Shown here: in pieces, positions 4,346 through 64,000 of the stretch | How the letters are laid out: each line of letters opens with the position of its first letter | How positions within the stretch are numbered: position 1 is the first letter of the stretch | Assembly: GCA_964634935.1 (NCBI GenBank) | Contig: CAZWJT010000007.1 | Span: 13,808 to 77,807, forward strand | Direction: 5' to 3' | DNA length: 64,000 bases | From: an uncultured Planctomycetia bacterium | Lineage (GTDB): Bacteria; Omnitrophota; Gorgyraeia; Duberdicusellales; Duberdicusellaceae | Translations under genes and position numbers: made by a program | Notes under the pieces: generated by a model | What the model was told of the DNA's origin: nothing | What the model saw: the letters and a program-made list of their open reading frames with translations, nothing else | The model's database searches: none

Positions 4346-4350
4346 AGGAG

Positions 4351-4821: not shown

Positions 4822-4827
4822 GGCATT

Positions 4828-5487: not shown

Positions 5488-5501
5488 AGCGGAGGTGAGT
5501 T

Positions 5502-34528: not shown

Positions 34529-34584
34529 GAATGGAGTTCTTTTCTTTCCCGGTTTTTCTTTTATAATAGGGAACACTGTAATGT

Positions 34585-35277
34585 ATGTTGGAGAAAAAGA
34601 TGCACGATAAAAAAATATCTGTGGTAATTCCCGCACGCAATGAAGCTCCTACTATTTGTGAGATTATCAGCGAAGCCAAGAAAGTTGCCTGGGAAGTGTT
34701 GGTAATCGATGGTAATTCGTCTGACGATACCGCTTCTTTGGCCGTTCAGGCTGGAGCGCGTCTTATTCGGGATGAGGGAAAAGGAAAAGGACGAGCTGTC
34801 CGTTTGGGAATTCAGGAAGCACAGGGCGATGTTATTGTATTTATTGATGCTGATGGTTCACATGACCCACGGGATATCTCCCGTCTCGTCCAGCCGATCT
34901 TTGATGATACTGCAGATATGGTGATTGCTTCACGGAGTACAGGCGGGAGCGATGAGCTTCATGGGACAGTCAATAAATTTTTGAGGCTCATTGGGAGCGA
35001 AATTATAACGCTTATTATCAATATTCGTTTCCGACAAACATTGACAGATACCCAAAATGGATTTCGCGCACTTCGAGCCCCAGCCGCAAAGAGTATTCGG
35101 CTTACTGAAAATATCACCACGATAGAGCAAGAGATGGTAATTAAGTTTTTAAAGAAGAACTACCGGATTGTTGAAGTTTCAAGTCACGAGTATGAGCGGA
35201 AATATGGTAAATCAGTAATCGTACTCAGGCGCGTTTGGTTTCGCTATGTGTATTCTGTTATAAAAAATATTTTTTAA
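34585..35277 (+). CDS. Glycosyltransferase family 2 (Dpm1/polyprenyl-phosphate sugar synthase-like)
   Basis: KISVVIPARNE…VIDGNSSDDT…FIDADGSHDP (DxD) motifs. Confidence 0.8.
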   Translation: MLEKKMHDKKISVVIPARNEAPTICEIISEAKKVAWEVLVIDGNSSDDTASLAVQAGARLIRDEGKGKGRAVRLGIQEAQGDVIVFIDADGSHDPRDISRLVQPIFDDTADMVIASRSTGGSDELHGTVNKFLRLIGSEIITLIINIRFRQTLTDTQNGFRALRAPAAKSIRLTENITTIEQEMVIKFLKKNYRIVEVSSHEYERKYGKSVIVLRRVWFRYVYSVIKNIF

Positions 35278-35278
35278 T

Positions 35279-43829: not shown

Positions 43830-43832
43830 AAG

Positions 43833-44801
43833 ATGGGTATACAAAAAAATATTTTTTCTGTTTTTTTCTGCACTCTTGGCATTGTAACTTTTTTCGCATA
43901 TGCACAGGAAGCGCAAACCATTCGGGTAACTACATATTATCCGTCGCCAAATGTAAAAACATTGTCGCTGATTGTTCAGGATATGGAAGTTCGCAAAACC
44001 ACCGAAACGAGCATGGTGCCGCGTTTAGAGATCCCTGTAGGTGGTGTTTTTTATGTCGACAGCCCGGTTGCAGGGAGTGCTTTTCGTATTGATAGCGCTG
44101 GGGTTTCTTTCTCCGAGAATGCTTATGTTCATGAGACGATAGGATACCAGTGTGTTCGAAGCAATAATAACAGGGTTTGCAGCGGTAATGTTACCACGGG
44201 AAATTTAACGCCGCGGTCTTTTAATGGGAATGCTTCATATCTTCGTTTGAATGGTATCGCGTTGCATTCAATGCCGGTATTGGTTTTAAATGAAGAGGGG
44301 AATACCAGAATTCATAATGATTACCAGGGGATGCAGAACGCAACAAATACTTTGACCAATACCTATCCGCTTGCGCAGGATGCCTGTGCTATGTGCGAGA
44401 TGTGCGAACAGAAAGAAACGACGGCTTTAAAGAATGCGTGTTATACAGCGGAAAACTGCAATGCAGGATACATCAATGCCGACAGGAATTTTGATCTCGC
44501 GGCATGTTTAAATACGGCAAAAACCATTGCCACAAATACCCTTGGAACGCTTACCTATACCAACGCGCAAGGTCGTTTTTCGAATAAAAAAGGTATTTTC
44601 CGGATGACGAAGACTGGCGAGTATGCCTTTGGCGGTGGAGTAGGCGTGGGCATTGGCGGGCACTTTGGAGCTGGGGTGGGAGCTCTTTTCGGCACAAATA
44701 CAAAACCTGCTCCAGGCTGGCTTGGTTTTATTCCGACAGGTGATCCGGCAAAAAGTTTTGGTTATAAAACATTTCAGTATCAAACAAAGGATCCGCAGTG
44801 A
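43833..44801 (+). CDS. Cassette A, type-2: secreted protein (~320 aa), Gly-rich C-terminus, unknown family
   Basis: Signal peptide, RVTTYYPSPN motif, CAMCEMCE block, GGGVGVGIGGHFGAGVGALFG and YKTFQY near the C-terminus. Confidence 0.65.
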   Translation: MGIQKNIFSVFFCTLGIVTFFAYAQEAQTIRVTTYYPSPNVKTLSLIVQDMEVRKTTETSMVPRLEIPVGGVFYVDSPVAGSAFRIDSAGVSFSENAYVHETIGYQCVRSNNNRVCSGNVTTGNLTPRSFNGNASYLRLNGIALHSMPVLVLNEEGNTRIHNDYQGMQNATNTLTNTYPLAQDACAMCEMCEQKETTALKNACYTAENCNAGYINADRNFDLAACLNTAKTIATNTLGTLTYTNAQGRFSNKKGIFRMTKTGEYAFGGGVGVGIGGHFGAGVGALFGTNTKPAPGWLGFIPTGDPAKSFGYKTFQYQTKDPQ

Positions 44802-45421
44802 GAGTAAGTTTAGTGTCAAAAATTTTGTTTTTCATAGTATGCTGCATAGTGAGCGCGGTTCATCCGTGCGGGATGGTTTTGGCGAATGACGAAACAGTCA
44901 ATATTTCGACTTTTTATCCTTCTCCCAAAGGGATTTATGACCGTATCGATGTGGTGAATGCCGGTGGAATTTCTGGAAGCGCTCTTATTGGTAATACCCT
45001 GAAGATGATTAATACCGACCCAGCGGGAACCGTGGTTGATGGTCCGGGAACAGATATTGATAAGGATGGTAATATTAAGTCCAAGGCTTTTGCTTTTTTG
45101 GGGCAGAAATACTATACGCCGACTCTCAGGGCTCGCTCTTTAACCGTGACCCAGAATTCTCAGTGGCGGATTCCATCTTGGCAGGTGGAAGTGGGCGCAT
45201 TAGATTGGGGAGTTGTTCTTGCGAGCTTAGCCTTTAGCATCGATCAGACTGCAGAGTGTCCAAATGGCCTGGTGAATTCGATTACTAATTTAAGTGGTAT
45301 CTCACCCTTTTGTTTGGGAGTACCTGTGTCATTAAGCCCGCCGGTAGCAATAGTGCTGTGCGTGGGCCAGGAAAAGTTTATTCTTGGGTATAGCTGTTTG
45401 AATTTATATGCTCAAAATTAA
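44798..45421 (+). CDS. Cassette A, type-3: secreted protein (~205 aa), unknown family
   Basis: GTGA overlap with the previous gene; signal peptide, ISTFYPSPKGIYD motif, GQKYYTPTLR, LSGISPFCLGVP blocks. Confidence 0.6.
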   Translation: MRVSLVSKILFFIVCCIVSAVHPCGMVLANDETVNISTFYPSPKGIYDRIDVVNAGGISGSALIGNTLKMINTDPAGTVVDGPGTDIDKDGNIKSKAFAFLGQKYYTPTLRARSLTVTQNSQWRIPSWQVEVGALDWGVVLASLAFSIDQTAECPNGLVNSITNLSGISPFCLGVPVSLSPPVAIVLCVGQEKFILGYSCLNLYAQN

Positions 45422-45464
45422 GAAAAAAATCACAAGCAGGAAAAATCTGATATAATATAACCAT

Positions 45465-47030
45465 ATGCGGAGCAAGATAACCAGTGTGATTCTCCGAATC
45501 TATCAAAGAGGGGGTATACTTGGTTTTGTTTGTTTGATGCTTTTCTGTTCTTTGTCTTCCGCAAGCACCCTCACCGTCGATACATATTTTCCAGCTCCAG
45601 AAGTACGTTATCGTAAAGTTTTAGCCCAAGAGGTAGTTTCTAAACGCACTGAAATTGATGGTCGTCTTATCAAATATGATGAATTAGATGGAACAAAGAT
45701 TGTTCTTGAGATCGCAACAACCCCTCTGACGAAAGCCGCTTTTTCTGCGGAAGCAAAAACATTCACCAGCGATTCTGATATTGTCGTATCTCTTTTTAAA
45801 CCGCTTACCGTGCCCGCTTCTTCGCTCAATAATGCCAAGATTTATGTAAACGCAGTTGAAGATTTGATTTCTTTTAGCGATGGAGCAAACCGTATTGGAA
45901 TATGGCCCGGCCTTGGGTCCTGTGAACGGCAAAGTTTTCTTTTTCTTGGTTATTACACCGTTGATTGCGGAGATGGCGCGTATCTCGCCTATATTCAAGA
46001 GAGTTCAGGTATTTATTTTGCTATCGGCGGAGGTATGGGTTGGGCGAGTCCTCTTTCAGCGATAGGAACTGGATTCGGCATAAAATCCGGAAGCGTTGAT
46101 TATATCTGTTGCCGGTTGGATCAAAATGCGGTTATTCCTATTGGAAGCGGTAATATGAGTTGCGGAGTAGAAGAGACTGAGGTAAAAGACGCAAAGACCA
46201 GAGTAGATATAAAGCAGCAAGAATATAATGCGGCTTTTGATGCGGCAAAAGCCGCTGGCTGTTTTCGAGAGATGGGAGTAGGCGGTACAAAATACCATAC
46301 AAATTGGCCCGCTCCTGGAGTTGATGTTTCTTATGAGAAGACCTGGTTAGACGGCACAAACGTGGAACAGGAGTTTGGCAGATGGCTTGGTTGCAGTATG
46401 TATACCTGGGAATGCCGCGCACCAGCTGATGCGATATGTAACGGTAGTTGCAACACGTATTGTACATGTCAGAATTCTGCTTGTGGCTGTTGTGCTTCGG
46501 TGTGTACAGCGTATTGCGCTTGTTCAAGCTGTGGCTGTTGTTCTTCCACATGTACTTCGTATTGTTCTTGTGCTACTGCTGCTTGCGGCTGCGCGACTAA
46601 AGACCCAAAAACAGGAGCATGCACATCGTATAACACATGTCAGAATTCTGCTTGTGGCTGTTGTGCTTCGGTGTGTACTGGGTATTGCGCTTGTTCAAGC
46701 TGTGGCTGCTGTGCTACTGCCTGCACTTCGTATTGTTCCTGCGCTACTTCTGCTTGTGGCTGTTGTGTCTATAACAAAGTTTGCTGTGCTAATCCTGGAG
46801 AAGGGGTTGGAGGAAGCGGTTGGCGGTGGTACGAAGACCAGAACGGCGCATGTAACCGCGCTAACTGCAATAGCTTGATTTCTACTCTTTCTTCTGCAGG
46901 GCAGGCTTTGCGAGATGAAAAGGCAAACTACGAAAATAAGAAACGTTCTTATTGTACTTGTGTTTGTAACGCGCTGGGCAACCCCGGCGAACCGTGCATC
47001 AGTACTTGTATGGTGAGCAATCAGTTATAG
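45465..47030 (+). CDS. Cassette B, type-1: secreted Cys-rich protein (521 aa) with internal 57-aa tandem repeat
   Basis: Signal peptide, TVDTYFPAPE motif, WPGLGSCE, GGGMGWASPLSA, YICCRL. Two CGCC-rich 57-aa repeats; VCCANPGEG near the C-terminus as in A1. Confidence 0.65.
   Translation: MRSKITSVILRIYQRGGILGFVCLMLFCSLSSASTLTVDTYFPAPEVRYRKVLAQEVVSKRTEIDGRLIKYDELDGTKIVLEIATTPLTKAAFSAEAKTFTSDSDIVVSLFKPLTVPASSLNNAKIYVNAVEDLISFSDGANRIGIWPGLGSCERQSFLFLGYYTVDCGDGAYLAYIQESSGIYFAIGGGMGWASPLSAIGTGFGIKSGSVDYICCRLDQNAVIPIGSGNMSCGVEETEVKDAKTRVDIKQQEYNAAFDAAKAAGCFREMGVGGTKYHTNWPAPGVDVSYEKTWLDGTNVEQEFGRWLGCSMYTWECRAPADAICNGSCNTYCTCQNSACGCCASVCTAYCACSSCGCCSSTCTSYCSCATAACGCATKDPKTGACTSYNTCQNSACGCCASVCTGYCACSSCGCCATACTSYCSCATSACGCCVYNKVCCANPGEGVGGSGWRWYEDQNGACNRANCNSLISTLSSAGQALRDEKANYENKKRSYCTCVCNALGNPGEPCISTCMVSNQL
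46455..46796 (+). repeat. In-frame tandem direct repeat, 171-bp period, two copies at about 90% identity
   Basis: TGTCAGAATTCTGCTTGTGGCTGTTGTGCTTCGGTGTGTAC… recurs at 46467 and 46638; it encodes the Cys-rich TCQNSACGCCASVCT.YCACSSCGCC… units of protein B1. Confidence 0.85.
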
Positions 47031-47033
47031 CGT

Positions 47034-47933
47034 ATGAAAAAAGAATATTTGCGCTTTATTGTTCTTTTCTGGTGGTGCATTTTTTTCTCTGGTTACGCTT
47101 TTTCTCAAAACCAAGAGATAAGGATGAGCACGTACTATCCTACGCCTAATCTTGATGCAAACCAGTTTTTTGTTGATGAAGTTGATATCGAGAAAACAAC
47201 TCCAAAGACAACCCCGCCTTCATTTCGCATTGAGCAGGGCGGAGAGTTATTTGTAGGTACGGATAACGCAAACCGGATTCTTACGATCAATAATGCCGGA
47301 GTTTCCGCAAACGGAAATTCCTATGTTGAAGAAACCATAAGCTATGAGTGTGATCTTGCAACCGGCATATGTTCCGGAAGTTTAGCAACAAAAGATATGG
47401 AGCCGCGAGCCTATGGCGGCCAGTCTCCTTACATACGGTTAAGCGGTATTGCGCTCTATAGTATGCCGAGGTTGGTTGAAGTCGCGAATGATTGGACCTC
47501 AATGACCGACGGGGGAATTTTGAATGCGGTCAATGATGCGAATAATTACCTGCGCAATGTTTATCCAACAACCCGGCAAGGTTGTTTTACCTGCGAAGCC
47601 TGTGAATTGGAGAGTGATCCAGTAGCCTGTTTTACGGCGCATGGGTGCGGGTATGTGGCAGGGGAAGCTTTTGATTTAACGTTGTGCCTTACCGACACAT
47701 CCAATTTGGCAGGAGGTCATTTTGACGCAATGCTTGAAGATCCCGCGGCAAATCCCGGATATTCGCGGGAACGAGGCGTGCATGGGTTGACTAAGAATGG
47801 CGAATGGGCTGCTGGGATTGGTATTGGCGGTGTTTTAGGCGGGCATTTTGGCATTGGAGGCGCTATTCTTTTCGGTGGTGGAACACCGATGAATCGAAGC
47901 TATAACACCTTTGAATATAATTATAAAGAATAA
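47034..47933 (+). CDS. Cassette B, type-2: secreted protein (299 aa), Gly-rich C-terminus
   Basis: Signal peptide, RMSTYYPTPN motif, CFTCEACE block, GIGIGGVLGGHFGIGGAILFGGG and YNTFEY. Confidence 0.65.
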   Translation: MKKEYLRFIVLFWWCIFFSGYAFSQNQEIRMSTYYPTPNLDANQFFVDEVDIEKTTPKTTPPSFRIEQGGELFVGTDNANRILTINNAGVSANGNSYVEETISYECDLATGICSGSLATKDMEPRAYGGQSPYIRLSGIALYSMPRLVEVANDWTSMTDGGILNAVNDANNYLRNVYPTTRQGCFTCEACELESDPVACFTAHGCGYVAGEAFDLTLCLTDTSNLAGGHFDAMLEDPAANPGYSRERGVHGLTKNGEWAAGIGIGGVLGGHFGIGGAILFGGGTPMNRSYNTFEYNYKE

Positions 47934-47934
47934 G

Positions 47935-48633
47935 ATGAAATCGCCATTGAATCAAAAGATGCTCTTTCGGGTGCTTGCGCTTTTGGCATTCCTTTCTATG
48001 GCCCATACTAGTTCTTTTTCTCAAGGAACTGATGAGGAAGTCATCATTTCGCCCTTTTACCCGTCACCGAAGGGAATTTATGATAATCTGGAAGTCGTCA
48101 CTGATTTAATATTGGATCCTGGCCAAGACGGACGGGTTGGCGAAGGGGTATTGAAAATTGCCGGAGGAGCGCCTACTCCGTCAGGACAAGGATTAAACGC
48201 TCCAGGGATTTTGATGACAACCCCTACTTTTCCGGGAGAAAAGATAACCAGGATTAAAGAAGATGGTTCTCTGCGCGCCTCAGGTTTCCAATTTATTGGC
48301 GATAAATACTATACGAAAACATTAAGAGCCGGAGAGCTTGTGCTTACTGACAGCACGGGGGCATGGAAAGTTCCTACGCTCCAGATTGATAACGCTGAAT
48401 GGCTTGGAGGCTGGAGTGATCCCCGGTGGGGTGTCGGGTTTGGAAGTTCTACGAGTTTTGATTGTAACGACGGAGGTAATTTAGGATTTATCGGAGGCGT
48501 CCAAAACCTCAGCGGAATTATGCCGTGGTGTATCGGTATTCCTATTCCTCCAGATTTTTGTATAGCTGTTCTTTTGTGCGCGGGAGAAGAGCAGTTTATT
48601 ATGAGCTATAAATGCATTCGTCCTCAGTATTAA
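47935..48633 (+). CDS. Cassette B, type-3: secreted protein (~232 aa)
   Basis: Start set at ATG 47935, just after the B2 stop. Signal peptide, ISPFYPSPKGIYD motif, GDKYYTKTLR, LSGIMPWCIGIP. Confidence 0.6.
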   Translation: MKSPLNQKMLFRVLALLAFLSMAHTSSFSQGTDEEVIISPFYPSPKGIYDNLEVVTDLILDPGQDGRVGEGVLKIAGGAPTPSGQGLNAPGILMTTPTFPGEKITRIKEDGSLRASGFQFIGDKYYTKTLRAGELVLTDSTGAWKVPTLQIDNAEWLGGWSDPRWGVGFGSSTSFDCNDGGNLGFIGGVQNLSGIMPWCIGIPIPPDFCIAVLLCAGEEQFIMSYKCIRPQY

Positions 48634-48647
48634 AAAAGGAGAAAGAC

Positions 48648-49172
48648 ATGATCAAGAAAACCTTGTGGCTATTTCTGTTGACTTGTTCGTTTGGTTTTTC
48701 GTGTTTTGCGGTTTCTGATCCTATTGACATTAAAAATAATGTTCTTGATAAATTGGATATCCCTGTGTATCCTTCGATGCAATCGCCCGAGGCTTACGGG
48801 ATTTCGCTTAATTATACCCTGCAGGATACTTGCGTTGATTGCGTTATTTCTTTCTTTAAAACAGAACTCAAGAAAAAAGGCTGGAAGGTTGATGACGAAA
48901 AACTTGACCGAAGTTTTCAGGAGGCTTTTAGCAAGGTTCGCGGTCAGCTTGAGGGAATGCAAGGAAGTTATCCGCAGGGTTTTGATACGAAAACAGCAGA
49001 AGCGATACTTTCCGGGAAGAACGACAGTTACATTAAGGAACAAATTAAGAAAATGTCTCCAACGGTGATTGAGGCAAGAAGAGAAGAAGACGGGATCATT
49101 TGCCGTATTTTTATCCATGGAACTTCGGGGACCCAGGGAATGAAAATAACTTTAACGCTTTCTGCCCAATAA
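48648..49172 (+). CDS. Secreted hypothetical protein (174 aa) inserted between cassettes B and C
   Basis: Good SD AAAGGAGAAAG; signal peptide; lacks the (Y/F)(Y/F)P-x-P N-terminal motif of the cassette proteins. Confidence 0.5.
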   Translation: MIKKTLWLFLLTCSFGFSCFAVSDPIDIKNNVLDKLDIPVYPSMQSPEAYGISLNYTLQDTCVDCVISFFKTELKKKGWKVDDEKLDRSFQEAFSKVRGQLEGMQGSYPQGFDTKTAEAILSGKNDSYIKEQIKKMSPTVIEARREEDGIICRIFIHGTSGTQGMKITLTLSAQ

Positions 49173-49178
49173 TACTGA

Positions 49179-50558
49179 ATGCGGTTGACGCTTGACAGAT
49201 GCTCTAAAAAAACATCGTGCGGTGTTTTTTTAGGGCTTTTGTTCTTTGGGGTAGGTTTTTGCGGTTATACCGCCTATGCGGCAAACGATCTTACTGTCGA
49301 TACCTATTATCCCGCTCCAGCGTTAAATTACAAAGAAGCAAAGGCTCATGATTTTTCTTCACGCGATACTGAGGTAAAGAAGAAGATTGAGAAGCAAGAC
49401 CGGGCTTTTCTTGCTTCGGTTGATTCCCTGGATAAGAATCAATTTCCTACAGCTGGCGCAAAGGATTTTACAGACGCAGCTGATTCAATCTATATCGGAC
49501 TCTTCCGTGATTCTTCAAATGCATCCAATGTACGTCCTTTGCGCGTATTGAACGGAGCAGCGTTCGCCCCTACATCATCGCTCATTATCAATAAGGCGCG
49601 GCATGTATCGTATCTTACTGAAAACGGGGAAACAATGAGTATGTGGCCTGGATTAGGACGATGTGCTTCCCGTAGTATTTGGAAGCTCATTGCCGGATTC
49701 GCCCAGTGTGCCAGCGATGAATATCTCGCAGATTATTCGGAAAGTCCTGGTTTGTATCTTGGTGGTGGCGTAGGAAGCGCCAGCATGGGCAATATGGGTG
49801 GGGGAATTGGCTTTAAAATGTCGACGATTAACTATACCTGCTGTAAGTTGCGAGGAGATGAAGAGCCGGTAACCAGTATAGACGGATGTGTTACAAAACA
49901 AAATGACGCCGAGACAGCACGGCGTAATCTGGATCTTGCCAAATGCAGGTATATCCAAGCGATTCGTGATGCAAAAGCCGCAGGGTGTAATCACAGCAGA
50001 GATTTTGCTTGTTTCGGGAACAGTTGTCAAGATACAGGGGCGACCTGCACAAAGCGATTTGAAGATATGTCTATTAATGAAAACGCTTGTCCGTATTTAT
50101 TAAGCGGGCAACCTGTACCGTCGCCTCTACCGGCTGATTCAAGAATGCCCAGTCTTTTAGCTTTACTTGGGCTTATACCTTCAGAACCTCCCTCTATATG
50201 TTATGCAGGATGCACCGAATGTTCAACGTTCTGTTGTGGGTATGATTCAGCGGGGTTTTGTACCTCAACCTGCTGTAATTCTTGGGACGTCTGCAACGAG
50301 GCGGATTGTCAAAGTCGGATTGCAGATATAGACCAGAAAAAACAAGATATTGAGAATGCCCGGGCGCAGCTGAGGAATGTGCTCGAGGATTTATGTAATA
50401 CGTGCGTCTGCGGCCGCTGGGATGGTATTCGTTCTGAGATTGAAGCTTTCGTCCCTGGTTTGGATCTTGCCGGTTACATCGGTTCCTTGCTCAATCCGGG
50501 AGAATCTCTCTGTGATAATATGTGTAGTACTCAGATGCTTGACGCCGCGATACAATAA
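49179..50558 (+). CDS. Cassette C, type-1: secreted Cys-rich protein (459 aa)
   Basis: Signal peptide, TVDTYYPAPA motif, WPGLGRCA, YTCCKL, C-terminal LCNTCVCG as in A1/B1 (LCNCACQG / YCTCVCN). Confidence 0.65.
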   Translation: MRLTLDRCSKKTSCGVFLGLLFFGVGFCGYTAYAANDLTVDTYYPAPALNYKEAKAHDFSSRDTEVKKKIEKQDRAFLASVDSLDKNQFPTAGAKDFTDAADSIYIGLFRDSSNASNVRPLRVLNGAAFAPTSSLIINKARHVSYLTENGETMSMWPGLGRCASRSIWKLIAGFAQCASDEYLADYSESPGLYLGGGVGSASMGNMGGGIGFKMSTINYTCCKLRGDEEPVTSIDGCVTKQNDAETARRNLDLAKCRYIQAIRDAKAAGCNHSRDFACFGNSCQDTGATCTKRFEDMSINENACPYLLSGQPVPSPLPADSRMPSLLALLGLIPSEPPSICYAGCTECSTFCCGYDSAGFCTSTCCNSWDVCNEADCQSRIADIDQKKQDIENARAQLRNVLEDLCNTCVCGRWDGIRSEIEAFVPGLDLAGYIGSLLNPGESLCDNMCSTQMLDAAIQ

Positions 50559-50571
50559 TGGTGGCATAGTT

Positions 50572-51405
50572 ATGAAAATGAACGTTCAAAAAAAAGTAAG
50601 TATCCTCAAGTGCTTTCTCTATTGTTTTTTAGTTATTATTTCTGGTAGCGCGTACGCTGAAGGACAAGAAGTGCAGATGACTACTTTTTATCCGACGCCA
50701 AACGCGGTAACCAAGAATTTCATCGTTGATATTCTTCATATCGAAGATACGACGGGGGTTCCTGGCCCGGTTTTTACCATTACCACGGAAAGTGGAGTTG
50801 ACGGCTGGCTTAAGTTACGAGGAACAAATAGCTCAGGTGTTTTAACAGATGTTCTTGAAATAAATAATCTGGGGCTTGTTTTTCGCAAAAATGCGTACAG
50901 TGATGAAACCAGGGCTTATCCTTCAGTCCAACAACCCGGGATACTGGAACTACGACAATTTGGAACAGGGTCAGATTCTACTCCTGCTATTGAACTCAGA
51001 GGTATCCCTTTGACGCATACTCCGGAACTTGTTGTTTCTGTAAACCCATTCCGCAATAATTTTAATCCATTTAGTGATACTTTTTTTACACAGTATGATG
51101 ATCTGCAAAACGGTTGTTTATCCGCGGGGGGCGATCCCGAAACTTGCTTACAACTTTTAACTCCAATAGGCCGAGCAAGTTTTGACGTGATCACTGCTCC
51201 GTATGCGATTCCGGCATCAGAAAAATATTCTTCGCGGAAAGCGCTTTTCCTCTTGAACCAAACTCCAGAAACTGTTTTTGGGGTTGGGATATATTGTGGC
51301 ACAGGGAATGGCTGGGGTCCGGGTGCGGGTATACTTTTTGGGTTTGGAGGCGGCACAAACGCGCTCTATAAAACATTTAAGTACAGCGTGTATACGGGGA
51401 ATTAA
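50572..51405 (+). CDS. Cassette C, type-2: secreted protein (~277 aa)
   Basis: Start set at ATG 50572; the track ORF from 50377 overlaps C1 and is rejected. Signal peptide, QMTTFYPTPN, G-rich GILFGFGGG and YKTFKY. Confidence 0.6.
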   Translation: MKMNVQKKVSILKCFLYCFLVIISGSAYAEGQEVQMTTFYPTPNAVTKNFIVDILHIEDTTGVPGPVFTITTESGVDGWLKLRGTNSSGVLTDVLEINNLGLVFRKNAYSDETRAYPSVQQPGILELRQFGTGSDSTPAIELRGIPLTHTPELVVSVNPFRNNFNPFSDTFFTQYDDLQNGCLSAGGDPETCLQLLTPIGRASFDVITAPYAIPASEKYSSRKALFLLNQTPETVFGVGIYCGTGNGWGPGAGILFGFGGGTNALYKTFKYSVYTGN

Positions 51406-55706: not shown

Positions 55707-56000
55707 ATGAAGATACAGCCACTAGGAGACCGGGTTGTGGTCAAGCCGCTTGCTGCGGAAGAAAAAACAAAAGGGGGAATTCTTATTCCGGATACAGCAA
55801 AAGAAAAGCCTCAAGAAGGTGAAGTTATTGCTGTTGGTCAGGGTAAGACAGAAAACGGGAAACTAGTTCCGCCGGAGGTAAAACCAGGAGACAAAATTCT
55901 CTATGGGAAATATTCGGGCACCGAAATTCGTTCAAAAGAGGGTGATGAATATTTGATCCTGCGTGAGGACGATATCTTAGCGATTATTAAGGACAAGTAG
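55707..56000 (+). CDS. groES: Co-chaperonin GroES
   Basis: [14 protein letters not shown]… canonical GroES; SD AAGAGGAGGTG. Confidence 0.9.
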
Positions 56001-56012
56001 AGGTAAGGAGGA

Positions 56013-57653
56013 GTGGCTATGGCAAAACAGCTTTTATATAATGAGGAAGCTCGCAACAAAATCGTAAAGGGCGTTGAGGCTCTTGCGCGAGCAGTTAAGG
56101 TAACTCTTGGTCCCAAGGGTCGGAATGTGGTTATTGAGAAAAAGTTTGGCTCTCCGACCATCACCAAGGACGGGGTCACGGTTGCAAAAGAAGTTGAGCT
56201 AGAAGATCCTTTTGAAAATATCGGAGCTCAACTGGTGAAGGAAGTTGCTGAAAAAACTTCCGATAACGCGGGCGATGGAACAACAACGGCGACACTGCTT
56301 GGCGAGATTATTTTTAAAGAAGGCATGAAGAACGTTACCGCCGGCGCGAATCCAATGGCTTTGAAACGAGGTATTGATAAGGCGGTTATTGCGGTAATCG
56401 ATAATTTAAAGAAGATGTCCAAACAAGTCAAGGACAAAAAAGAAATAGCGCAAGTTGCCACGATCGCCGCGAATGGCGAAACCAAAATCGGCGAATTAAT
56501 CGCTGATGCCATGGATAAAGTTGGCAAAGACGGAGTTATTACCGTCGAAGAAGCAAAATCAACGGCAACCACCCTTGAAGTTGTCGAAGGTATGCAGTTT
56601 GACCAGGGGTATCTTTCTCCGTATTTTGTTACCGACCCCGAGAAGATGGAATGCAGCATGGAGGATCCGCACATTCTCATCTATGAGAAGAAAATTTCTA
56701 ACTTAAAAGACATGCTTCCCTTACTTGAGAAAATTGCCCGAAGCGGTAAACCACTTCTGATTATTGCAGAGGATGTTGAAGGAGAAGCGCTCGCGACTCT
56801 GGTCATTAATAATATCCGGAAAACCCTTGTTTGCGCAGCGGTGAAGGCTCCTGGCTATGGCGATAGACGGAAAGCTATGCTTGAAGATATCGCTGTTCTT
56901 ACTGGCGGGACGCCAATTACCGAAGACATCGGGCGTAAGCTTGAAAGTATCGATTTGAATGATTTAGGCCGGGCAAAGCGGGTACGGATTGATAAAGAGA
57001 ACACTACTATTATCGAAGGCGCTGGAAAGACCGCGGCAATTACCGGAAGAGTGGCTCAAATTAAGAAGCAAATTGAAAACACAGATTCTGATTACGACAA
57101 AGAAAAACTGCAAGAGCGTTTAGCGAAACTTTCTGGCGGTGTCGCAGTTATCAACGTTGGTTCTGCGACTGAAACAGAAATGAAAGAAAAGAAGGCTCGT
57201 GTTGAAGACGCGCTCCATGCGACCCGCGCCGCTGTTGAAGAAGGTATTATCCCTGGTGGAGGCATCGGGCTTTTACGCTCAGTGAGCATCGTTGAAAAAT
57301 TGAAACTAGAGGGCGATGAGCAAATCGGTGCACGAATTATTCGTCGGGCTATTGAAGAGCCGATTCGTCAGCTTCTTGCAAACGCGGGACTCGAGGGTTC
57401 GGTTATTGTTGAGAAATTAAAGTCCGAGAAAGAACATGTGGGATTTGATGTTGAAAAGGGTGAAGTTGTAGACATGCTTGAGGCAGGGGTTATTGATCCG
57501 ACAAAAGTAACTCGTTCAGCCCTTGAGAATGCGGCATCGATTTCCTCACTTTTGATTACAACCGAGTGTATCATCGTTGAAAAACCGGAAAAAGAAGCTA
57601 AGACACCTCCAATGCCACCAGCTGGTATGGGCGGCGGTTACGGTGACTATTAA
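56013..57653 (+). CDS. groEL: Chaperonin GroEL
   Basis: [11 protein letters not shown]…[11 protein letters not shown]… canonical GroEL, C-terminal GGM-like tail (MGGGYGDY). Confidence 0.95.
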
Positions 57654-57672
57654 GGTTTAAGAAGGATCCTGC

Positions 57673-57712
57673 GAGGGAGATTCCTTACACAAGGAATCTC
57701 CCTCTTTTTTTT
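57673..57712 (+). terminator. Rho-independent terminator after groEL
   Basis: GAGGGAGATTCC-loop-GGAATCTCCCTC hairpin followed by TTTTTTTT. Confidence 0.8.
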
Positions 57713-57983: not shown

Positions 57984-59378
57984 ATGGCAAAGATTCTTTT
58001 TGTTAATCCGCCTTTACGAAAAAGCGCGTATCTGGTTACGAATACTTCTGTGGCAGCTCCAAGCTACCCAAGCCTTACCCTTGCGAATCTTGCAGGGCAA
58101 ATTAGGAAAAATCACCAGGTACAAATTCTCGATTTGGAGCTTGTTTCTCATGCGGAGGAAGCGCTTTGGGAGACGATAGATACTGTTCGGCCTGACTTTG
58201 TGGCATCTTCCGCAAACACCCCTTCGTATCTTTTTATCGCAAATTCCATGAAGCAGATCAAAGAACGCTATCCTTGGATTACTACTATTGTTGGAGGAGT
58301 TCATATAACTGCTTTGCCAGGGGAAGCAGCGCAGAACCCGTATTTTGACATCATTGTACTTGGCGAAGGGGATAAGACAATCGAAGAAATTTTAGAAAAG
58401 CCGCTTTCTAGTGTTGCCGGGGTTATGTATTTCGATTCACAGAAAAAGCGAGTTTCCGGTAAAAAACGGGAATACTTAAAAGATTTAGATGCTTTAGCGT
58501 ATCCGGCTTGGAATCTTTTTTCGCTTAAACAGTATAAAAATTCCCGTGTTTCCTGCAGGAAGAATCCCGCGGGTCTCATCGAAACTAGCAGGGGATGTGC
58601 GTTTCAGTGTAATTTTTGCAACAAGCTTACTTTTGGAACTTTATTTCGGGTCAAAAGTCCTCGGCGCGTTGTTGATGAAATTGAATATATGCTTCAATGT
58701 GGTTTTAAGGAAATTCATATTACCGACGATAGTTTTACTCAGGACATTGGACGGGCAAAAGAAGTGTGCGCAGAGATTTTACGGAGGAATCTTAAGTTTC
58801 CCTGGTCGATATTAAATGGGGTACGCGCAGACAAAGTTGACCAGGAATTTTTTATGCTCGCAAAACGTTCAGGATGTTGGCAAACAGGATTTGGCATTGA
58901 AAGTGGAGATGACGCAGTGCTCCAGAGAATTAGTAAGCAGATTACTACAGAGCAGATTCAAAAGTCAATTAGAATGGCAAAAAATGCGGGTATTGAAACT
59001 TTTGGGTTTTTTATCTTTGGGCTGAGCGGGGAGTCCATACAATCGATGCAAAAAACAATAGATTTTGCTTGTGAGCTTCCTCTCGATATCGCAAAGTTTG
59101 ATATTTGTATTCCTTATCCGGGTACTCCGTATTACAATGAGCTAAAAAGTCAGAATCGACTTGCTTCAGAGGATTGGTCAAAGTATGTTTGTCATCAGAT
59201 CGACGAGCCTTTGTTCCAGCACGAAAATATTTCCTGGCAGAATCTCCAGCAATATTATCGACAGGCGTTTCGAATATTCTATCTTCGTCCCCGGTATATT
59301 ATCCAGCGTTTCTTGCGCGACTTATGCAAGGGAGATTTTTTGTACGATTTAAGCTATTTTCTCCGGGCAAAATGGTAA
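57984..59378 (+). CDS. B12-binding-domain radical SAM protein
   Basis: N-terminal B12-binding-like domain (…ILFVNPP…), CAFQCNFC radical SAM motif; same architecture as 33104..34528. Confidence 0.8.
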   Translation: MAKILFVNPPLRKSAYLVTNTSVAAPSYPSLTLANLAGQIRKNHQVQILDLELVSHAEEALWETIDTVRPDFVASSANTPSYLFIANSMKQIKERYPWITTIVGGVHITALPGEAAQNPYFDIIVLGEGDKTIEEILEKPLSSVAGVMYFDSQKKRVSGKKREYLKDLDALAYPAWNLFSLKQYKNSRVSCRKNPAGLIETSRGCAFQCNFCNKLTFGTLFRVKSPRRVVDEIEYMLQCGFKEIHITDDSFTQDIGRAKEVCAEILRRNLKFPWSILNGVRADKVDQEFFMLAKRSGCWQTGFGIESGDDAVLQRISKQITTEQIQKSIRMAKNAGIETFGFFIFGLSGESIQSMQKTIDFACELPLDIAKFDICIPYPGTPYYNELKSQNRLASEDWSKYVCHQIDEPLFQHENISWQNLQQYYRQAFRIFYLRPRYIIQRFLRDLCKGDFLYDLSYFLRAKW

Positions 59379-59800: not shown

Positions 59801-60211
59801 ATGAAAAGAAAATCAGGTTTTACTCTTGTAGAAATCATGATCGTTGTTGCTATCATCGCGCTCCTTGCATCAATTGCTATACCCAACTTAATGAAGGCAC
59901 GGCAAAGCGCAAATGATTCTGCGGCAAAAGCAGAATTACAGACTCTTCAGACAGCGCTTGAGAACTACGCGGTTGACATGAACGGAAACTATGCTGCTGC
60001 TGACAACACAAATAGTCTTGCGCACTTAGTTACTGCCGGTTATCTGCGAGTTGATACATGTGCTGCTGGTGTTCCTGCTAACGCAATTAAGTCAGGACAT
60101 AGGTTTACCTGCGATGTTGATATTACCGGGTATACCATCACAGCTGTGAAAGAAGGAAACTCTGGAACTAAGAATTTTGTTATGACGCAGCTCGGTATCA
60201 ATGAGTATTAG
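59801..60211 (+). CDS. Type IV pilin / pseudopilin (prepilin-type N-terminal cleavage/methylation domain)
   Basis: MKRKSGFTLVEIMIVVAIIALLASIAIP: class III signal peptide (G|FTLVE) plus hydrophobic helix; strong SD GGAAAGGAGGGA. Confidence 0.8.
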   Translation: MKRKSGFTLVEIMIVVAIIALLASIAIPNLMKARQSANDSAAKAELQTLQTALENYAVDMNGNYAAADNTNSLAHLVTAGYLRVDTCAAGVPANAIKSGHRFTCDVDITGYTITAVKEGNSGTKNFVMTQLGINEY

Positions 60212-60240
60212 TCCAGGACTTTTCATGGTTTGAATACCAC

Positions 60241-60278
60241 AAAGGGCGAAAGATACAATCTTTCGCCCTTTGTATTTT
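60241..60278 (+). terminator. Rho-independent terminator after the pilin gene
   Basis: AAAGGGCGAAAG-ATACAAT-CTTTCGCCCTTT hairpin followed by a T-rich tract. Confidence 0.75.
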
Positions 60279-60317
60279 ACCTGGGCTAATCTATTTCTTT
60301 GAATAAAACAGTTAGTA

Positions 60318-62891
60318 ATGTTGAAACGAGTAAGTTTCGTTCTTTTTTTTATAAGCTTTTTTGTGAATATATATTTTCGGCTTACCCCTGTCTACTTTCC
60401 TGCCATGAAAGAATGGGCTGAAACGCTCGCCAAGAAAGAATTGCAAGCTCATGCAGAAAAGTTCCTTACGGACCGCTCACGCAGTTCTTTAGTAAAAAAT
60501 ATACTCCAGAAAGAATCTATCTTATTCGAGAGTGAAGTTCAAAAAAAGAAATTGCATTCCCGGATAGAACAGATTTATCGTAAGTTGAAAGATCCTTATC
60601 AGGATCTATCGGGGCAAACATATCTTTTGGAGCTTGATGGTTACCATTGGAAGCGTTATGTGAAAAATATTCTTCAGCATGGAAGTCCAGGTGATATAAC
60701 GGAAGATAAACAAGAATACGATATATATACACTTGCTCCTGTTGGCGTTCCTGTCTTTGAACAAAAAGGCTATTTTTATTTATCAGCTTTTTTTATCAAG
60801 GTAATTCAGTATTTTTTCCCTGCCGTGAAGTTTGATACAGCCATTTTTTATCTTCCGCTTGTATATTTTTTTATCTTTTTCTGCGTTTTGTACGGATTCA
60901 TCCGATATGTATTCTCCAATGTCGCAGCATTCTTTTCAACGCTCTTTATTGGATTAAGCGGTGCTTGGATTCAGCGTAGTTCTGCCGGATGGTTCGATTA
61001 TGATAGCCTGATTGTTACATTGCCTTTGTTGGCCTCTTGGCTTATTATTACGGCGTTATACGAGAAAACATCTTTTTTAAAAAGATTTTTCTTCAGTATT
61101 TTAAGTGCCATAGTCGTTTTTTTCTATGCATTTACCTGGGCAGGTTACGGTTGGTGGTGGTTATTGTTGGCATCATTCTTTATTTTTTCTTTGATCAACA
61201 GCTATCTCATTTCTCATTCTTTAAAAACAGATTCTCTGAAGTATCTTTTGGTTGGGAGTATCTGTATTTTGACAAGCATTCTTCTTGTTATCTTTTTTCT
61301 GCATCGTAATTTAATTCTGAATATTTTCCAGCTTGCCGGCCTTTTTACTTCTTCTACAATTTATGGTTCTATCTGGCCAAATGTCTATTATACAGTGCGG
61401 GAATTACTTCCATTTTCTATATCAGAAATCTTAGGACATCTTCATGGGGGGGTTATTGCATCTTTTTCTTTATGCGGTTTTCTTTATATTTTTCTGAAAG
61501 AACGGAGATCGGAGAAAAAAGACTTCCTTTTGCTGACTTTTCTGTGGCTTGTTGGCATGTTTTACGCTTCTTTAAAGTCACAGCGTTTTGTTCTGTTTCT
61601 TATTGTGCCATTTGGAATAAGTTTTGGAATTTTTACAGTTGAAATAGGACGGTATTTGTTCCGCGATTTTCTCAAAAAACATGCAATGATCACGAGTAAC
61701 TTTTTCCGGATTCGTCGGGTAAATTTTGTGCTTGGTAAAAACATCTCTCTGTATTTTGGGCGTATTCTTTTTGTTGGTTTCATGATGTTTTCATTTGTCA
61801 GATTTGGTTTATCAGCAAGAACCACAGCCGATACCTTAATTCCGATCATGAATGATTCTTGGCAGAGTGCTCTGGCATATCTGAAACAGGAAACACCGAA
61901 AGAGGCCATTATTAATACAATGTGGGACTACGGTGTTTTTATCGAGACTGAATCTCAAAGGAGGGTGTTATACGATGGGATCTCTCAGGATGGGTTTATT
62001 GGATATTGGATTACTCGTGTTTTGTTGAGTACTTCCGAGAAAGAATCTCTTCGTATTTTACGCATGCTTAACAATTCTTCATGTCTTTTACGGAATGAGC
62101 TATGGGAAGAACTTCATGATTCTTTTGAAGCGGGAATGCTTTTGCAGCTGCTTATAAGCAGTGAGTTCTCGCAGACAGAGAAGATTTTTGATATGTATAC
62201 TATTTCGCCGAACTTACGTAAGCGAATTCTCGATGTTCTATATATACGGCGACCAGACCCGGCTTATCTTTTTATCGATAAGGGTCTATTTCGAAAGATG
62301 AAATCCATATCGTTCTTACGGAATTGGAATTTCGCAAAATTGTATATTTCTCAAAATAAAGACCGGCTTTCACAGAATCGCCTTATTCAAAGAGTAGTTG
62401 AAAAGTTCGGGATTTCTGTTGAGCAGGCAGAAGGATTTTATGCTGATGTGCTTCTTGCTTCTGTTTCCAAAGATTTTAATGAAGTATTATCCGAACGTTG
62501 GGAAATGAGTCAGGTTCCTTCTTTTGGATTGCAGCAAGGCGAAGTTGTTTTGTTTAATAATAATATTGTATTTGATTTGAAAGATAAAAAAGGGTATGTA
62601 TTTTCTCTGGAACAACAAAAATATAACCAACTTAGATTTATAACCATCTTTGACGCGCTAGCAGGAACCTCGGCATATTATGAAAATAAAGATGCCAACT
62701 TAGAGTCCGGCGGCATTGTTATCCATTCTCCGGATGGTTGGAAATCACTGTTAGTTTCTCATCAAGAGCTTGCCAGCGCTTTGTTCGCAAAGTTATATTT
62801 TCTGAATGGAAAAGAGCTGGAATATTTTAAGCCAGTTTATTCTGATCCTGAGGGAGGAATTTTTATCTTCAAAATTATTTGGCCAGAATGA
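60318..62891 (+). CDS. STT3/AglB/PglB-family oligosaccharyltransferase-like membrane protein
   Basis: 857 aa. TM1 followed by a long first loop; about 13 TM region; MWDYG (compare WWDYG) about 25 aa after the last TM; SISE (compare SVSE/TIXE) in a late loop; C-terminal soluble domain. Confidence 0.55.
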   Translation: MLKRVSFVLFFISFFVNIYFRLTPVYFPAMKEWAETLAKKELQAHAEKFLTDRSRSSLVKNILQKESILFESEVQKKKLHSRIEQIYRKLKDPYQDLSGQTYLLELDGYHWKRYVKNILQHGSPGDITEDKQEYDIYTLAPVGVPVFEQKGYFYLSAFFIKVIQYFFPAVKFDTAIFYLPLVYFFIFFCVLYGFIRYVFSNVAAFFSTLFIGLSGAWIQRSSAGWFDYDSLIVTLPLLASWLIITALYEKTSFLKRFFFSILSAIVVFFYAFTWAGYGWWWLLLASFFIFSLINSYLISHSLKTDSLKYLLVGSICILTSILLVIFFLHRNLILNIFQLAGLFTSSTIYGSIWPNVYYTVRELLPFSISEILGHLHGGVIASFSLCGFLYIFLKERRSEKKDFLLLTFLWLVGMFYASLKSQRFVLFLIVPFGISFGIFTVEIGRYLFRDFLKKHAMITSNFFRIRRVNFVLGKNISLYFGRILFVGFMMFSFVRFGLSARTTADTLIPIMNDSWQSALAYLKQETPKEAIINTMWDYGVFIETESQRRVLYDGISQDGFIGYWITRVLLSTSEKESLRILRMLNNSSCLLRNELWEELHDSFEAGMLLQLLISSEFSQTEKIFDMYTISPNLRKRILDVLYIRRPDPAYLFIDKGLFRKMKSISFLRNWNFAKLYISQNKDRLSQNRLIQRVVEKFGISVEQAEGFYADVLLASVSKDFNEVLSERWEMSQVPSFGLQQGEVVLFNNNIVFDLKDKKGYVFSLEQQKYNQLRFITIFDALAGTSAYYENKDANLESGGIVIHSPDGWKSLLVSHQELASALFAKLYFLNGKELEYFKPVYSDPEGGIFIFKIIWPE

Positions 62892-64000
62892 GCGGAAATT
62901 TTGTTTCGGTGCTTATCCCTTGTTTGAATGAAGAAAGAACCATCGGGACTTGTGTTCGAAAAGTCCTGAATGTTTTTCGCGAAAAAAATATCCCGGGAGA
63001 AGTTATTGTGATTGATAACGGTTCTTGGGACAACTCTGCTCAGATTGCCCGCCAGGAGGGTGCCTTGATTGAGTTGCAGCCAGTGAAAGGGTACGGAGCT
63101 GCTTACTTAAAAGGCATTGAGGTAGCAAGGGGTGATATCATTATCATGGGGGATGGGGATGATACATACGATTTTAGCGAGCTCCATTCTTTGATTATTA
63201 AAATTAAGGAAGGGTATGACTGTGTGATTGGCTCTCGGTTTAAAGGAAAAATTCTTCCGGGAGCGATGCCTTTTGCTAACCGGTATCTTGGTAATCCTAT
63301 TCTGACCGGTATCCTGAATCTTTTCTATGATGCCTCAATTTCCGACGCGCACTCTGGTTTTCGGGCGATTACCAAACAAGCCGTAGAAAAGCTTGATCTT
63401 AAAACAATAGGAATGGAATTTGCTTCAGAAATGATTATCGCGGCATTTAGAGAAAAGCTGAAGATATCCGAGATTCCGATTGTTTACTATCCCCGGCAGG
63501 GTGAATCAAAGCTGAAACCATTTTCTGACGCTTGGCGCCATTTGCGATTCATGCTTTTATTTAGTCCAGATTGGCTGTTTTTTATTCCTGGAATAATTTT
63601 ATTTTTTGGCGGTTTCATATTAGCGCTTGCAACTGGGTTTGGAGTATTACGGTTATTTGGTTATGCATTCGATGTCCATTCAATGGTTTTTTTTACATTT
63701 GTTGCTTTAGTGGGGTTCCAGATTCTGAGTATCGGATTTTTTGCAAAAACCTACAGCTATAAAGAAGGTTTTTTGAGGCATGATCGATTCATTGAGTTGT
63801 TTTTCCGGTGTTTTAACCTCGAAAAAGGAATTTTGAGCGGATTAGTCCTTTGCTTGATCGGCATTTTTGGGGGTTTTTCTATTGTAGTAAAGTGGGTTCA
63901 TTCGAATTTTGGCCAGCTTTCAGAGATGAGATTTACGCTTATCTGGTTCTTATTCTTGATGGTTGGAGCTCAAACGATCTTTTCTTCTTTTTTTCTCAGT
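62888..64000 (+). CDS. GT2 polyprenyl-phosphate glycosyltransferase (Dpm1/ArnC/AglD-like), 3'-truncated by window end
   Basis: VSVLIPCLNEE…VIDNGSWDNS…GDGDDTYD (DxD); C-terminal TM helices begin before the window end. ATGA overlap with the OST gene. Confidence 0.7.
   Translation, partial: MSGNFVSVLIPCLNEERTIGTCVRKVLNVFREKNIPGEVIVIDNGSWDNSAQIARQEGALIELQPVKGYGAAYLKGIEVARGDIIIMGDGDDTYDFSELHSLIIKIKEGYDCVIGSRFKGKILPGAMPFANRYLGNPILTGILNLFYDASISDAHSGFRAITKQAVEKLDLKTIGMEFASEMIIAAFREKLKISEIPIVYYPRQGESKLKPFSDAWRHLRFMLLFSPDWLFFIPGIILFFGGFILALATGFGVLRLFGYAFDVHSMVFFTFVALVGFQILSIGFFAKTYSYKEGFLRHDRFIELFFRCFNLEKGILSGLVLCLIGIFGGFSIVVKWVHSNFGQLSEMRFTLIWFLFLMVGAQTIFSSFFLS

Follow-up and report, generated by a model that had tools for sequence, protein, structure and literature searches.

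A pilin-linked, archaeal-type STT3/AglB gene module in Omnitrophota with a putative role in N-glycosylation

Results

Genes and features at the locus

We analyzed a stretch of 64,000 nucleotides (contig CAZWJT010000007.1 of assembly GCA_964634935.1, positions 13,808 to 77,807, forward strand; hereafter termed the window) from an uncultured bacterium that is listed as a Planctomycetia bacterium and placed among the Omnitrophota in the GTDB lineage. Close to its end, three genes follow each other on the plus strand. The first encodes a type IV pilin- or pseudopilin-like protein of 136 aa (59801-60211), a candidate glycan acceptor, the second an oligosaccharyltransferase (OST) of the STT3/AglB family with 857 aa (60318-62891) and the third a polyprenyl-phosphate glycosyltransferase of family 2 (GT2) with C-terminal transmembrane (TM) helices (62888-64000, running past the window end). 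All three open reading frames (ORFs) were confirmed at the coordinates of an initial annotation, which had interpreted the arrangement as a putative N-glycosylation module containing a divergent PglB-type enzyme. Hidden Markov model (HMM) searches, a structural model and comparative data bear out the putative module and lead to a different affiliation of the enzyme.

The pilin features the prepilin N-terminus KSGFTLVEIMIVV, with the ORF starting as MKRKSGFTLVEIMIVV. The prepilin N-methylation motif is recognized by PF07963 (E = 6e-9, above the gathering score) and also by TIGR02532 above its cutoff, and via both matches a class III signal peptide is predicted, i.e. G|F-x-x-x-E together with a hydrophobic alpha1 helix. 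Matches to ComGC, PilA and GspG are partial, each under its cutoff. GGAGG precedes the gene as a ribosome-binding site. The STT3 gene follows at a distance of 107 bp, and no other ORF in the whole window has a prepilin motif. Genes for T2SSE, T2SSF, a secretin and PilM were looked for in the 64-kb window and none was detected. The single N-x-S sequon that had been ascribed to the pilin is indeed present as N38-D-S40. An intrinsic-terminator-like hairpin (60239-60283, plus strand) is situated between the pilin and STT3 genes. Its stem (60239-60273) comprises 16 bp including 7 G-C pairs, encloses a 3-nt loop and is followed by ATTTTA. Judging from the sequence, this pattern would be typical of a highly expressed gene for a major subunit with partial read-through into the genes downstream.

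Family and fold of the STT3 protein

The 857-aa protein matches Pfam STT3 (PF02516) over residues 92-453 with 100.5 bits and E = 2e-28, well above the gathering score of 24.5. The match to the STT3-PglB_core domain (0.01) is under the cutoff and NCBIfam archaeo_STT3 matches in part only, with 45 bits compared with a cutoff of 450. When 20 relatives were combined into a profile, it retrieved AglB from Archaeoglobus fulgidus (AfAglB, E = 2e-17), human STT3A (9e-15) and PglB from Campylobacter lari (7e-12). An AlphaFold2 model built on an alignment of 20 relatives (pLDDT 85.8, pTM 0.83) contains about 13 TM helices, a first external loop (EL1) that is long and helical and a mixed alpha/beta periplasmic domain, and its residues 343-349 are of low confidence as expected for a mobile external loop 5 (EL5). 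When the model was compared with the PDB using Foldseek, ranks 1 to 19 were all taken by N-glycan-transferring OSTs (N-OSTs), namely PglB, STT3A/B, yeast STT3 or AfAglB, with E values from 8e-19 to 3e-9 and TM-scores of up to 0.68 when normalised to target length. The best match was PglB (5ogl, E = 8e-19, TM-score 0.64 with the same normalisation). Other enzymes with the GT-C fold (DPY19, Emb, ArnT, ALG9, PMT) were far weaker. On account of the Pfam score, the profile matches with their alignment of landmark residues and the Foldseek ranking of the model, the predicted membership in the N-OST family GT66 is solid.

Catalytic motifs

Conservation of individual residues was counted over an alignment of 76 full-length relatives. 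Acidic motifs of the DXD type are found in both EL1 and EL2. D107 in E105-L-D107, which aligns with D47 of AfAglB and the EFD motif of STT3A, is present in 76/76. The stretch G224-W-F-D227-Y-D229 is aligned to D161-H-H163 of AfAglB and D-N-E of STT3A, with D227 conserved in 73 and D229 in 74 of the 76 sequences (the two others having E). R423 is again invariant (76/76) and corresponds to R426 of AfAglB, the arginine contacting the donor phosphate.

For OSTs of archaea and bacteria, a TIXE motif has been defined (PMC8342417). The initial annotation located it in EL5 as SISE (367-370), which we reject as E370 occurs in only 29 of the 76 relatives and the three residues before it, S367, I368 and S369, vary as well. 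Its place is taken by T359-V-R-E362 eight residues upstream, which on sequence grounds appears to be the genuine motif. It forms part of the element S-I-W-P-N-x-x-x-T359-[V/I]360-x-E362 (T in 75/76, V/I and E each in 76/76), which in the window protein reads T359-V360-R361-E362, is located in the loop before TM10, behind the low-confidence residues 343-349, and has TVAE as its equivalent in AglB relatives from DPANN archaea.

MWDYG (residues 535-539), about 30 residues past the last predicted TM helix (470-505), aligns with WWDYG of AglB from Pyrococcus furiosus, of human STT3A and of AfAglB. The claim that it occupies the position of this catalytic motif after the last TM helix is thus correct, while the methionine is unique to the window protein (1/76) and no family trait: the family motif is WWD[YF]G in 75/76, with W536, D537 and G539 present in 76/76. 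WWD[YF]G and T[VI]xE recognize the hydroxyl at position +2 of the sequon and its backbone (PMC8342417). Further downstream, with regard to the DGGK (or DNXTZNX[T/S]) motif, D553-G554 (75/76 and 70/76, respectively) is aligned to DNNTWNN of STT3A and continues as Q-S-Q in the family and as I-S-Q in the window protein. As for the DK/MI motif, a DK-like D601-x-x-[K/R/E]604 is present and loosely conserved.

The coupled glycosyltransferase and the continuation of the contig

The start codon of the GT2 gene overlaps the stop codon of the STT3 gene (ATGA, 62888-62891), in agreement with the translational coupling proposed initially. The full length of 379 aa could be derived from the identical contig of another assembly (L001). 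The protein matches PF00535 with E = 2e-24. The top NCBIfam match is AglJ (2e-44), followed by haloarchaeal dolichyl-phosphate hexose transferase; with 152 bits versus an equivalog cutoff of 325, it does not qualify as an AglJ equivalog. The closest relative of solved structure is the dolichyl-phosphate mannose synthase from P. furiosus (5mlz, E = 3e-18, residues 6-293 including the TM region), the second is ArnC (3e-9), and GT2_TM_C appears in the precomputed annotation. The original description of the protein as Dpm1/ArnC-like with TM helices is therefore accurate, and because its best solved relatives are a dolichyl-phosphate mannose synthase and ArnC, we predict that it is a polyprenyl-monophosphate glycosyltransferase of the Dpm1/AglJ/ArnC type. 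Orthologs (about 400-500 bits) reside directly downstream of STT3, often overlapping with it, in 45 of the 69 loci that offer enough downstream sequence.

Past the window end, the operon continues on the same contig (L001 9043-17897) with genes for a methyltransferase, a GT2, a GT4 and a UDP-GlcNAc 3-dehydrogenase-like enzyme (Gfo/Idh/MocA), and further on for an acetyltransferase of the NeuD/PglB/VioB family, a Wzx-type flippase, a Trm112-fused methyltransferase and a heparinase II/III-like protein. From their annotation, these genes are suggestive of a glycan containing a diacetamido sugar.

Distribution in Omnitrophota and relationship to DPANN AglB

A word-indexed protein search yielded about 20 full-length relatives with 29-38% identity, the named ones of which are annotated as "STT3 domain-containing protein" from Candidatus Omnitrophota. 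Scanning one genome per species yielded 98 relatives, of which 80 loci were kept. Nearly all of these stem from metagenome-assembled or single-amplified genomes of Omnitrophota, with a few bins labelled otherwise. An exhaustive profile search returned 1334 clusters (50% identity) at E<=1e-30. The longer homologues among them (about 950-1200 aa) are archaeal, and the named relatives of one protein, P0069, are all labelled Woesearchaeota, Nanoarchaeota, "DPANN group" or "archaeon".

The similarity between the Omnitrophota and DPANN proteins extends over the full length. Identity to a Woesearchaeota AglB amounts to 29% (E = 7e-114) for a member from Omnitrophota and to 26% (E = 2e-87) for the window protein, the alignments span about 870-900 columns and the Omnitrophota profile scores DPANN proteins with 530-640 bits. 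In a rough neighbor-joining tree, Omnitrophota (38 sequences) and DPANN (27 sequences, 4 of which were assigned by similarity only) are reciprocally monophyletic sisters, separated by a long stem from two distant STT3 outgroups. Published trees place bacterial STT3 homologues within archaeal diversity (PMC4973528). The view of the enzyme as a divergent PglB can thus not be maintained: its nearest relatives are DPANN AglBs, the profile matches AfAglB (2e-17) better than PglB (7e-12) and it is widespread in Omnitrophota. As far as the sequences tell, the enzyme belongs to a clade of Omnitrophota, represented in at least 98 species genomes, that is sister to DPANN AglB. An ancient inter-domain transfer between the two groups would be the simplest reading, and either direction is possible because the two clades are reciprocally monophyletic in the rough tree.

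In several genomes of Omnitrophota, STT3 is present as two paralogs, which are found on separate contigs and in separate contexts (L017/L053, L045/L052, L062/L068, L027/L082 and L021/L055). At locus L088, STT3 is divided between two successive ORFs (3644-5590 and the next ORF), and in L019 (10001-12139), which is part of the complete chromosome CP070797, the STT3 match spans residues 1-728 only. Both cases may represent frameshifts, pseudogenes or assembly errors.

Gene neighborhoods of STT3

The comparison of gene neighborhoods comprised 86 non-redundant STT3 loci. The recurrent order is PilM-(PilO)-secretin-T2SSE-T2SSF-1 to 4 prepilin genes-STT3-GT2 (with TM helices)-(GT2)-PMT_2-type GT-C-B12-radical SAM, such that a type IV pilus operon often ends with the prepilin genes close to STT3. 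In locus L004, N_methyl genes even flank STT3 on both sides within the pilus operon. Pilus machinery is encoded within 10 kb of STT3 in 17 of 39 loci. At the other end of the scale, minimal loci hold STT3, GT2 and radical SAM genes only. Sixty-five prepilin ORFs were counted in the 216 kb that lie within 3 kb upstream of STT3, as opposed to 4 in the other ~870 kb, i.e. about 3 versus 0.05 per 10 kb or an approximately 60-fold enrichment.

It is conceivable that the pilin and STT3 genes adjoin each other in the window by coincidence and are functionally unrelated, and both the terminator-like hairpin between them and the chance-level sequon count of the pilin would agree with this. The arrangement recurs, however, in many distant relatives, and the presence of the only prepilin gene of 64 kb just 107 bp away from STT3, combined with the positional enrichment of prepilins at related loci, argues that the adjacency is not due to chance. 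We therefore regard coincidence as highly improbable.

A gene for a B12-binding radical SAM enzyme of 464 aa with Pfam B12-binding and Radical_SAM domains is located upstream of the pilin gene (57984-59378, plus strand). Its top NCBIfam matches, BchE and HpnJ, are far under the cutoffs. In 25 of 51 loci, a homologue is encoded no more than 6 kb downstream of STT3. The protein encoded at 57984 matches these STT3-linked enzymes with 200-226 bits, compared with 150-180 bits for its paralog at 33104-34528, which was considered as the true ortholog and dismissed as it is outscored. One may guess that the enzyme modifies the sugar or the lipid. Directly upstream of this gene resides a groES-groEL operon (55707-57704) with a strong terminator-like hairpin (57673-57704, 14-bp stem and T8).

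The window harbors a second glycosylation-type cluster (30202-42125, plus strand) in the order PMT_2 GT-C, GT9, B12-radical SAM, short GT2, radical SAM-SPASM, radical SAM, PMT_2, GT87 (GT-C) and PMT_2. Genes for PMT_2, GT2 and B12-radical SAM proteins, which are positioned directly downstream of STT3 in other Omnitrophota, are thus found about 20 kb upstream in the window. The cluster is followed by a run of ORFs with signal-peptide-like N-termini (42237-51405). None of them is enriched in sequons, and the one ORF that was tested (42237-43829) is without a Pfam match.

Sequons in STT3-adjacent pilins

Sequons were defined as N-x-S/T with x not being P, and expected numbers were derived from composition-preserving shuffles. 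The 65 pilin-like proteins encoded next to STT3 contain 191 sequons versus 83.8±7.9 expected, a 2.3-fold excess (z = 13.5). After similar sequences had been collapsed to 49, 146 sequons remained versus 65 expected (z = 11). As the shuffle null ignores kinship, these z values overstate independence, which does not affect the specificity for the motif. N-x-T is enriched 2.75-fold and N-x-S 1.76-fold; the corresponding values for control motifs are 1.27 for [ST]-x-N, 1.0 for N-x-x-[ST], 1.1 for Q-x-[ST], 1.2 for D-x-[ST] and 0.72 for N-[ST]. The excess is found in both STT3 sub-clades (2.06- and 2.40-fold) and in both pilin types, and not a single sequon occurs in the first 25 residues of the mature pilins, which form the buried helix. 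Non-pilin proteins of the same loci have 0.57 to 1.24 times the expected number. Only a short GT2 family stands out, with an excess that we would guess to be caused by the conserved 'DNGS' motif of GT2 enzymes. Composition or low complexity was rejected as the source of the sequon excess because reverse, offset and Q/D-x-S/T motifs as well as neighboring proteins are not enriched. An acidic residue at position -2 is present in only 13 of the 191 sequons, no more than predicted by the sequon excess itself, so that an extended sequon of the Campylobacter type (D/E-x-N-x-S/T) is not indicated. A pattern of this kind would be expected if N-glycosylation sites were favored by selection, and it constitutes the strongest indirect evidence for pilins as acceptors.

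These data also bear on what is transferred, and to which acceptors. Tight coupling to a polyprenyl-monophosphate GT2 is a hallmark of two-enzyme systems like ArnC/ArnT, GtrB/GtrC and TfpW, and in minimal loci STT3 is accompanied by GT2 and radical SAM genes only. The protein could accordingly be an STT3-derived GT-C enzyme that moves a single sugar from a polyprenyl-P-sugar to an acceptor of another kind, be it a pilin Ser/Thr, a glycan or a lipid. We deem this very unlikely in view of the N-OST motifs that the family keeps, WWD[YF]G and T[VI]xE among them (PMC8342417), and of an enrichment that is specific for N-x-S/T and not for Ser/Thr content. Moreover, the GT2 coupling is no argument against N-glycosylation since euryarchaeal AglBs, too, use monophosphate-linked donors (PMC8342417).

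A second possibility concerns the range of acceptors. The enzyme may serve a general N-glycosylation system for many periplasmic or surface proteins, of which pilins would be one abundant class, with the adjacency of the genes reflecting co-regulation of surface structures. Archaeal AglB and Campylobacter PglB are both established as general systems, 35 of 60 loci lack a pilin gene within 3 kb upstream of STT3, some genomes possess two STT3 copies in different contexts and the contig under study runs into a generic glycan cluster (GT2, GT4, WbpB-like dehydrogenase, NeuD/PglD-like acetyltransferase, Wzx flippase). Such a broad range is nevertheless unlikely in our view, because prepilins are enriched about 60-fold by position, STT3 is found within pilus operons and a sequon excess is seen neither in the secretin or further envelope proteins of these loci nor in the exported proteins of the window.

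The window protein as an outlier of its family

Among the 76 sequences, the window protein diverges most, its mean identity being 30% compared with 41% for the family median. Of the 101 columns with a conservation of 90% or more, it deviates at 19, the family median being 2. Nine of these 19 deviations (S534T, W535M, F542I, K543E, I551L, F552Y, Q555I, P560F and M565I) cluster in the surroundings of the WWDYG and DGGK-like motifs, at residues 534-565. None of the catalytic acids is lost, and R423 and W536-D537-G539 are kept as well. The cluster of substitutions may point at altered recognition of acceptor or donor or at relaxed constraint. As the region of the Ser/Thr pocket is remodelled and the neighboring pilin has a single sequon, acceptor specificity or activity of this particular enzyme may differ from the rest of the family.

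Taken further, the window copy could have drifted to such an extent that the requirement for Ser/Thr at position +2 is weakened or altered, or it could be decaying and weakly active, with little or no glycosylation of classical sequons in this genome. The W535M exchange, unique among the 76 proteins, the number and clustering of the deviations, the low mean identity, the single-sequon pilin and the absence of sequon-enriched ORFs from the window would fit. We consider the idea improbable, given that the ORF is intact and of full length with the residues named above retained, that its translation is still coupled to that of a GT2 gene, the product of which is well conserved (about 500 bits to orthologs), and that the one sequon of the pilin coincides in position with a sequon (NES/NES/NQS) of its orthologs at loci L008, L010 and L022. 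Present and intact as it is in the window, the module may serve this lineage in a different way or to a lesser extent.

Discussion

We judge it probable that the genes described here specify an archaeal-type N-glycosylation module, in which a single-subunit STT3/AglB OST receives its donor from the product of the GT2 gene and has type IV pilins as its principal clients. N-glycosylation would then take place with pilins as acceptors and with the product of GT2 as the donor or a first intermediate in a monophosphate-type pathway as in Euryarchaeota. In the proposed sequence of events, GT2, acting on the cytoplasmic side of the membrane, would link a sugar to polyprenyl monophosphate. The lipid-linked sugar could then be extended or modified by the methyltransferase, GT2, GT4, UDP-GlcNAc 3-dehydrogenase-like enzyme and NeuD/PglD-family acetyltransferase encoded on the same contig and be flipped by the Wzx-type flippase encoded there as well. 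Finally, STT3 would transfer the glycan in the periplasm to the asparagine of N-x-S/T in exported pilins before or during their assembly.

The donor may be linked via one phosphate or via two. We lean towards the monophosphate and thus to a route of the euryarchaeal style, given the tight STT3-GT2 coupling shared with DPANN, the minimal STT3-GT2-radical SAM loci and AfAglB, a monophosphate-using enzyme, as the best match. The PMT_2-type GT-C enzymes of many relatives could instead consume the GT2 product in a manner resembling AglD/AglS.

Several observations weigh against the proposed module. A terminator-like hairpin separates the pilin from the STT3 gene. The window pilin shows no enrichment, with one sequon versus 1.5 expected, and a search for sequon-rich ORFs across the 64-kb window found none, with 84 sequons observed versus 86.7 expected. 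A pilin gene within 3 kb upstream of STT3 is frequent and not universal (25 of the 60 loci whose upstream sequence is long enough). The PMT_2 GT-C enzyme that follows in many loci might draw on the GT2 product in place of STT3, and no initiating phosphoglycosyltransferase of the PglC type was seen. As an EL5 sub-profile (residues 335-445) found no match among solved structures, the assignment of E362 as the TIXE glutamate rests on its invariance, the motif pattern and its position in the loop. The window protein, moreover, is the only one to carry M at the first WWDYG position and departs from its family at an unusually high number of conserved columns. Function as a whole is deduced from sequence, structural model and gene context.

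Comparison with characterized systems underlines the archaeal affinities. With the AglB of Woesearchaeota and Nanoarchaeota, the Omnitrophota proteins share homology over the full length (26-29% identity, E = 2e-87 to 7e-114), the motifs IWPNxxxTVxE, RF, NSWWD[YF]G, FDGxSQ and ILRML and, as seen on two DPANN contigs (L089 187-4660 and L090 10001-14646), an overlapping downstream gene for a Dpm1-like GT2. They differ in that the DPANN proteins have about 950-1200 aa and are often fused to an N-terminal rotamase/FKBP peptidyl-prolyl isomerase (P0196, P0199, P0206, P0283 and others), that the DPANN GT2 is short (about 220 aa) and accompanied by a separate DUF2304 membrane protein whereas GT2 and TM helices are fused in Omnitrophota, and that the host of the latter is bacterial and possesses a periplasm as well as a secretin in the outer membrane. 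Archaeal AglB is known to N-glycosylate type IV pilins and archaellins (PMC5131992, PMC2952790), and the arrangement proposed for Omnitrophota would have its parallel there.

The Agl pathway of Haloferax volcanii (AglJ, AglD/AglS, AglP, AglR, AglB) resembles the module in its AglJ-like GT2, its methyltransferases, its Wzx-like flippase and additional GT2/GT4 enzymes, and many Omnitrophota relatives encode a PMT_2-type GT-C comparable to AglS. The match to AglJ falls far short of the equivalog cutoff (152 vs 325 bits), however, and the conserved B12-radical SAM enzyme is an extra of the Omnitrophota. Haloferax belongs to the Euryarchaeota, which use donors of the monophosphate type (PMC8342417).

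Campylobacter PglB is likewise a single-subunit bacterial periplasmic N-OST of the same fold that is clustered with glycosyltransferases and a flippase. In contrast to it, the Omnitrophota enzyme is closer in sequence to AglB, has a polyprenyl-monophosphate GT2 as its partner and is linked to pilus genes, with no PglC-type enzyme seen and no preference for an acidic residue at -2 among the pilin sequons.

Bacterial enzymes that modify pilins and are encoded next to pilA, i.e. the O-oligosaccharyltransferases TfpO/PilO and PglL and the arabinosyltransferase TfpW of Pseudomonas, a GT-C enzyme using a polyprenyl-P-sugar, have their genes directly downstream of the pilin gene. The position of the modifying enzyme immediately 3' of the pilin gene is a feature that they have in common with the Omnitrophota loci. 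They form O-linkages and belong to Wzy_C or other GT-C families and not to STT3, whereas the motifs and the sequon excess in Omnitrophota point to linkage via asparagine. To our knowledge, pilin glycosylation in bacteria is O-linked, and the attachment of N-glycans to subunits of type IV filaments is seen as characteristic of archaea. The component families are already known and database pipelines label the proteins as "STT3 domain-containing". A literature search retrieved no paper linking Omnitrophota with N-glycosylation, STT3 or AglB, and the combination of a phylum-wide bacterial clade of DPANN-type AglB, integration into pilus operons and sequon excess in pilins appears to be undescribed in the literature covered by this search.

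In its widest form, our proposal would be that pili or pilus-like filaments of Omnitrophota are N-glycosylated by an archaeal-type AglB that is shared with DPANN through ancient inter-domain transfer, maybe with a monophosphate-linked donor started by an AglJ/Dpm1-like GT2. We see the chances of this statement as evenly balanced. It is directly testable by metaproteomics or heterologous expression. If true, the module would represent a large and diverse group of single-subunit OSTs that seem to manage without an acidic residue at -2 and would be of interest for glycoengineering. It would likewise define a bacterial N-OST lineage distinct from the PglB-type enzymes of Campylobacter and Desulfovibrio and provide the first N-glycosylated bacterial type IV pilus, such that the divide between archaea and bacteria in pilin N-glycosylation would be blurred. 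Gene exchange would thereby be indicated between Omnitrophota and DPANN archaea, two groups of ultra-small, host-associated organisms.

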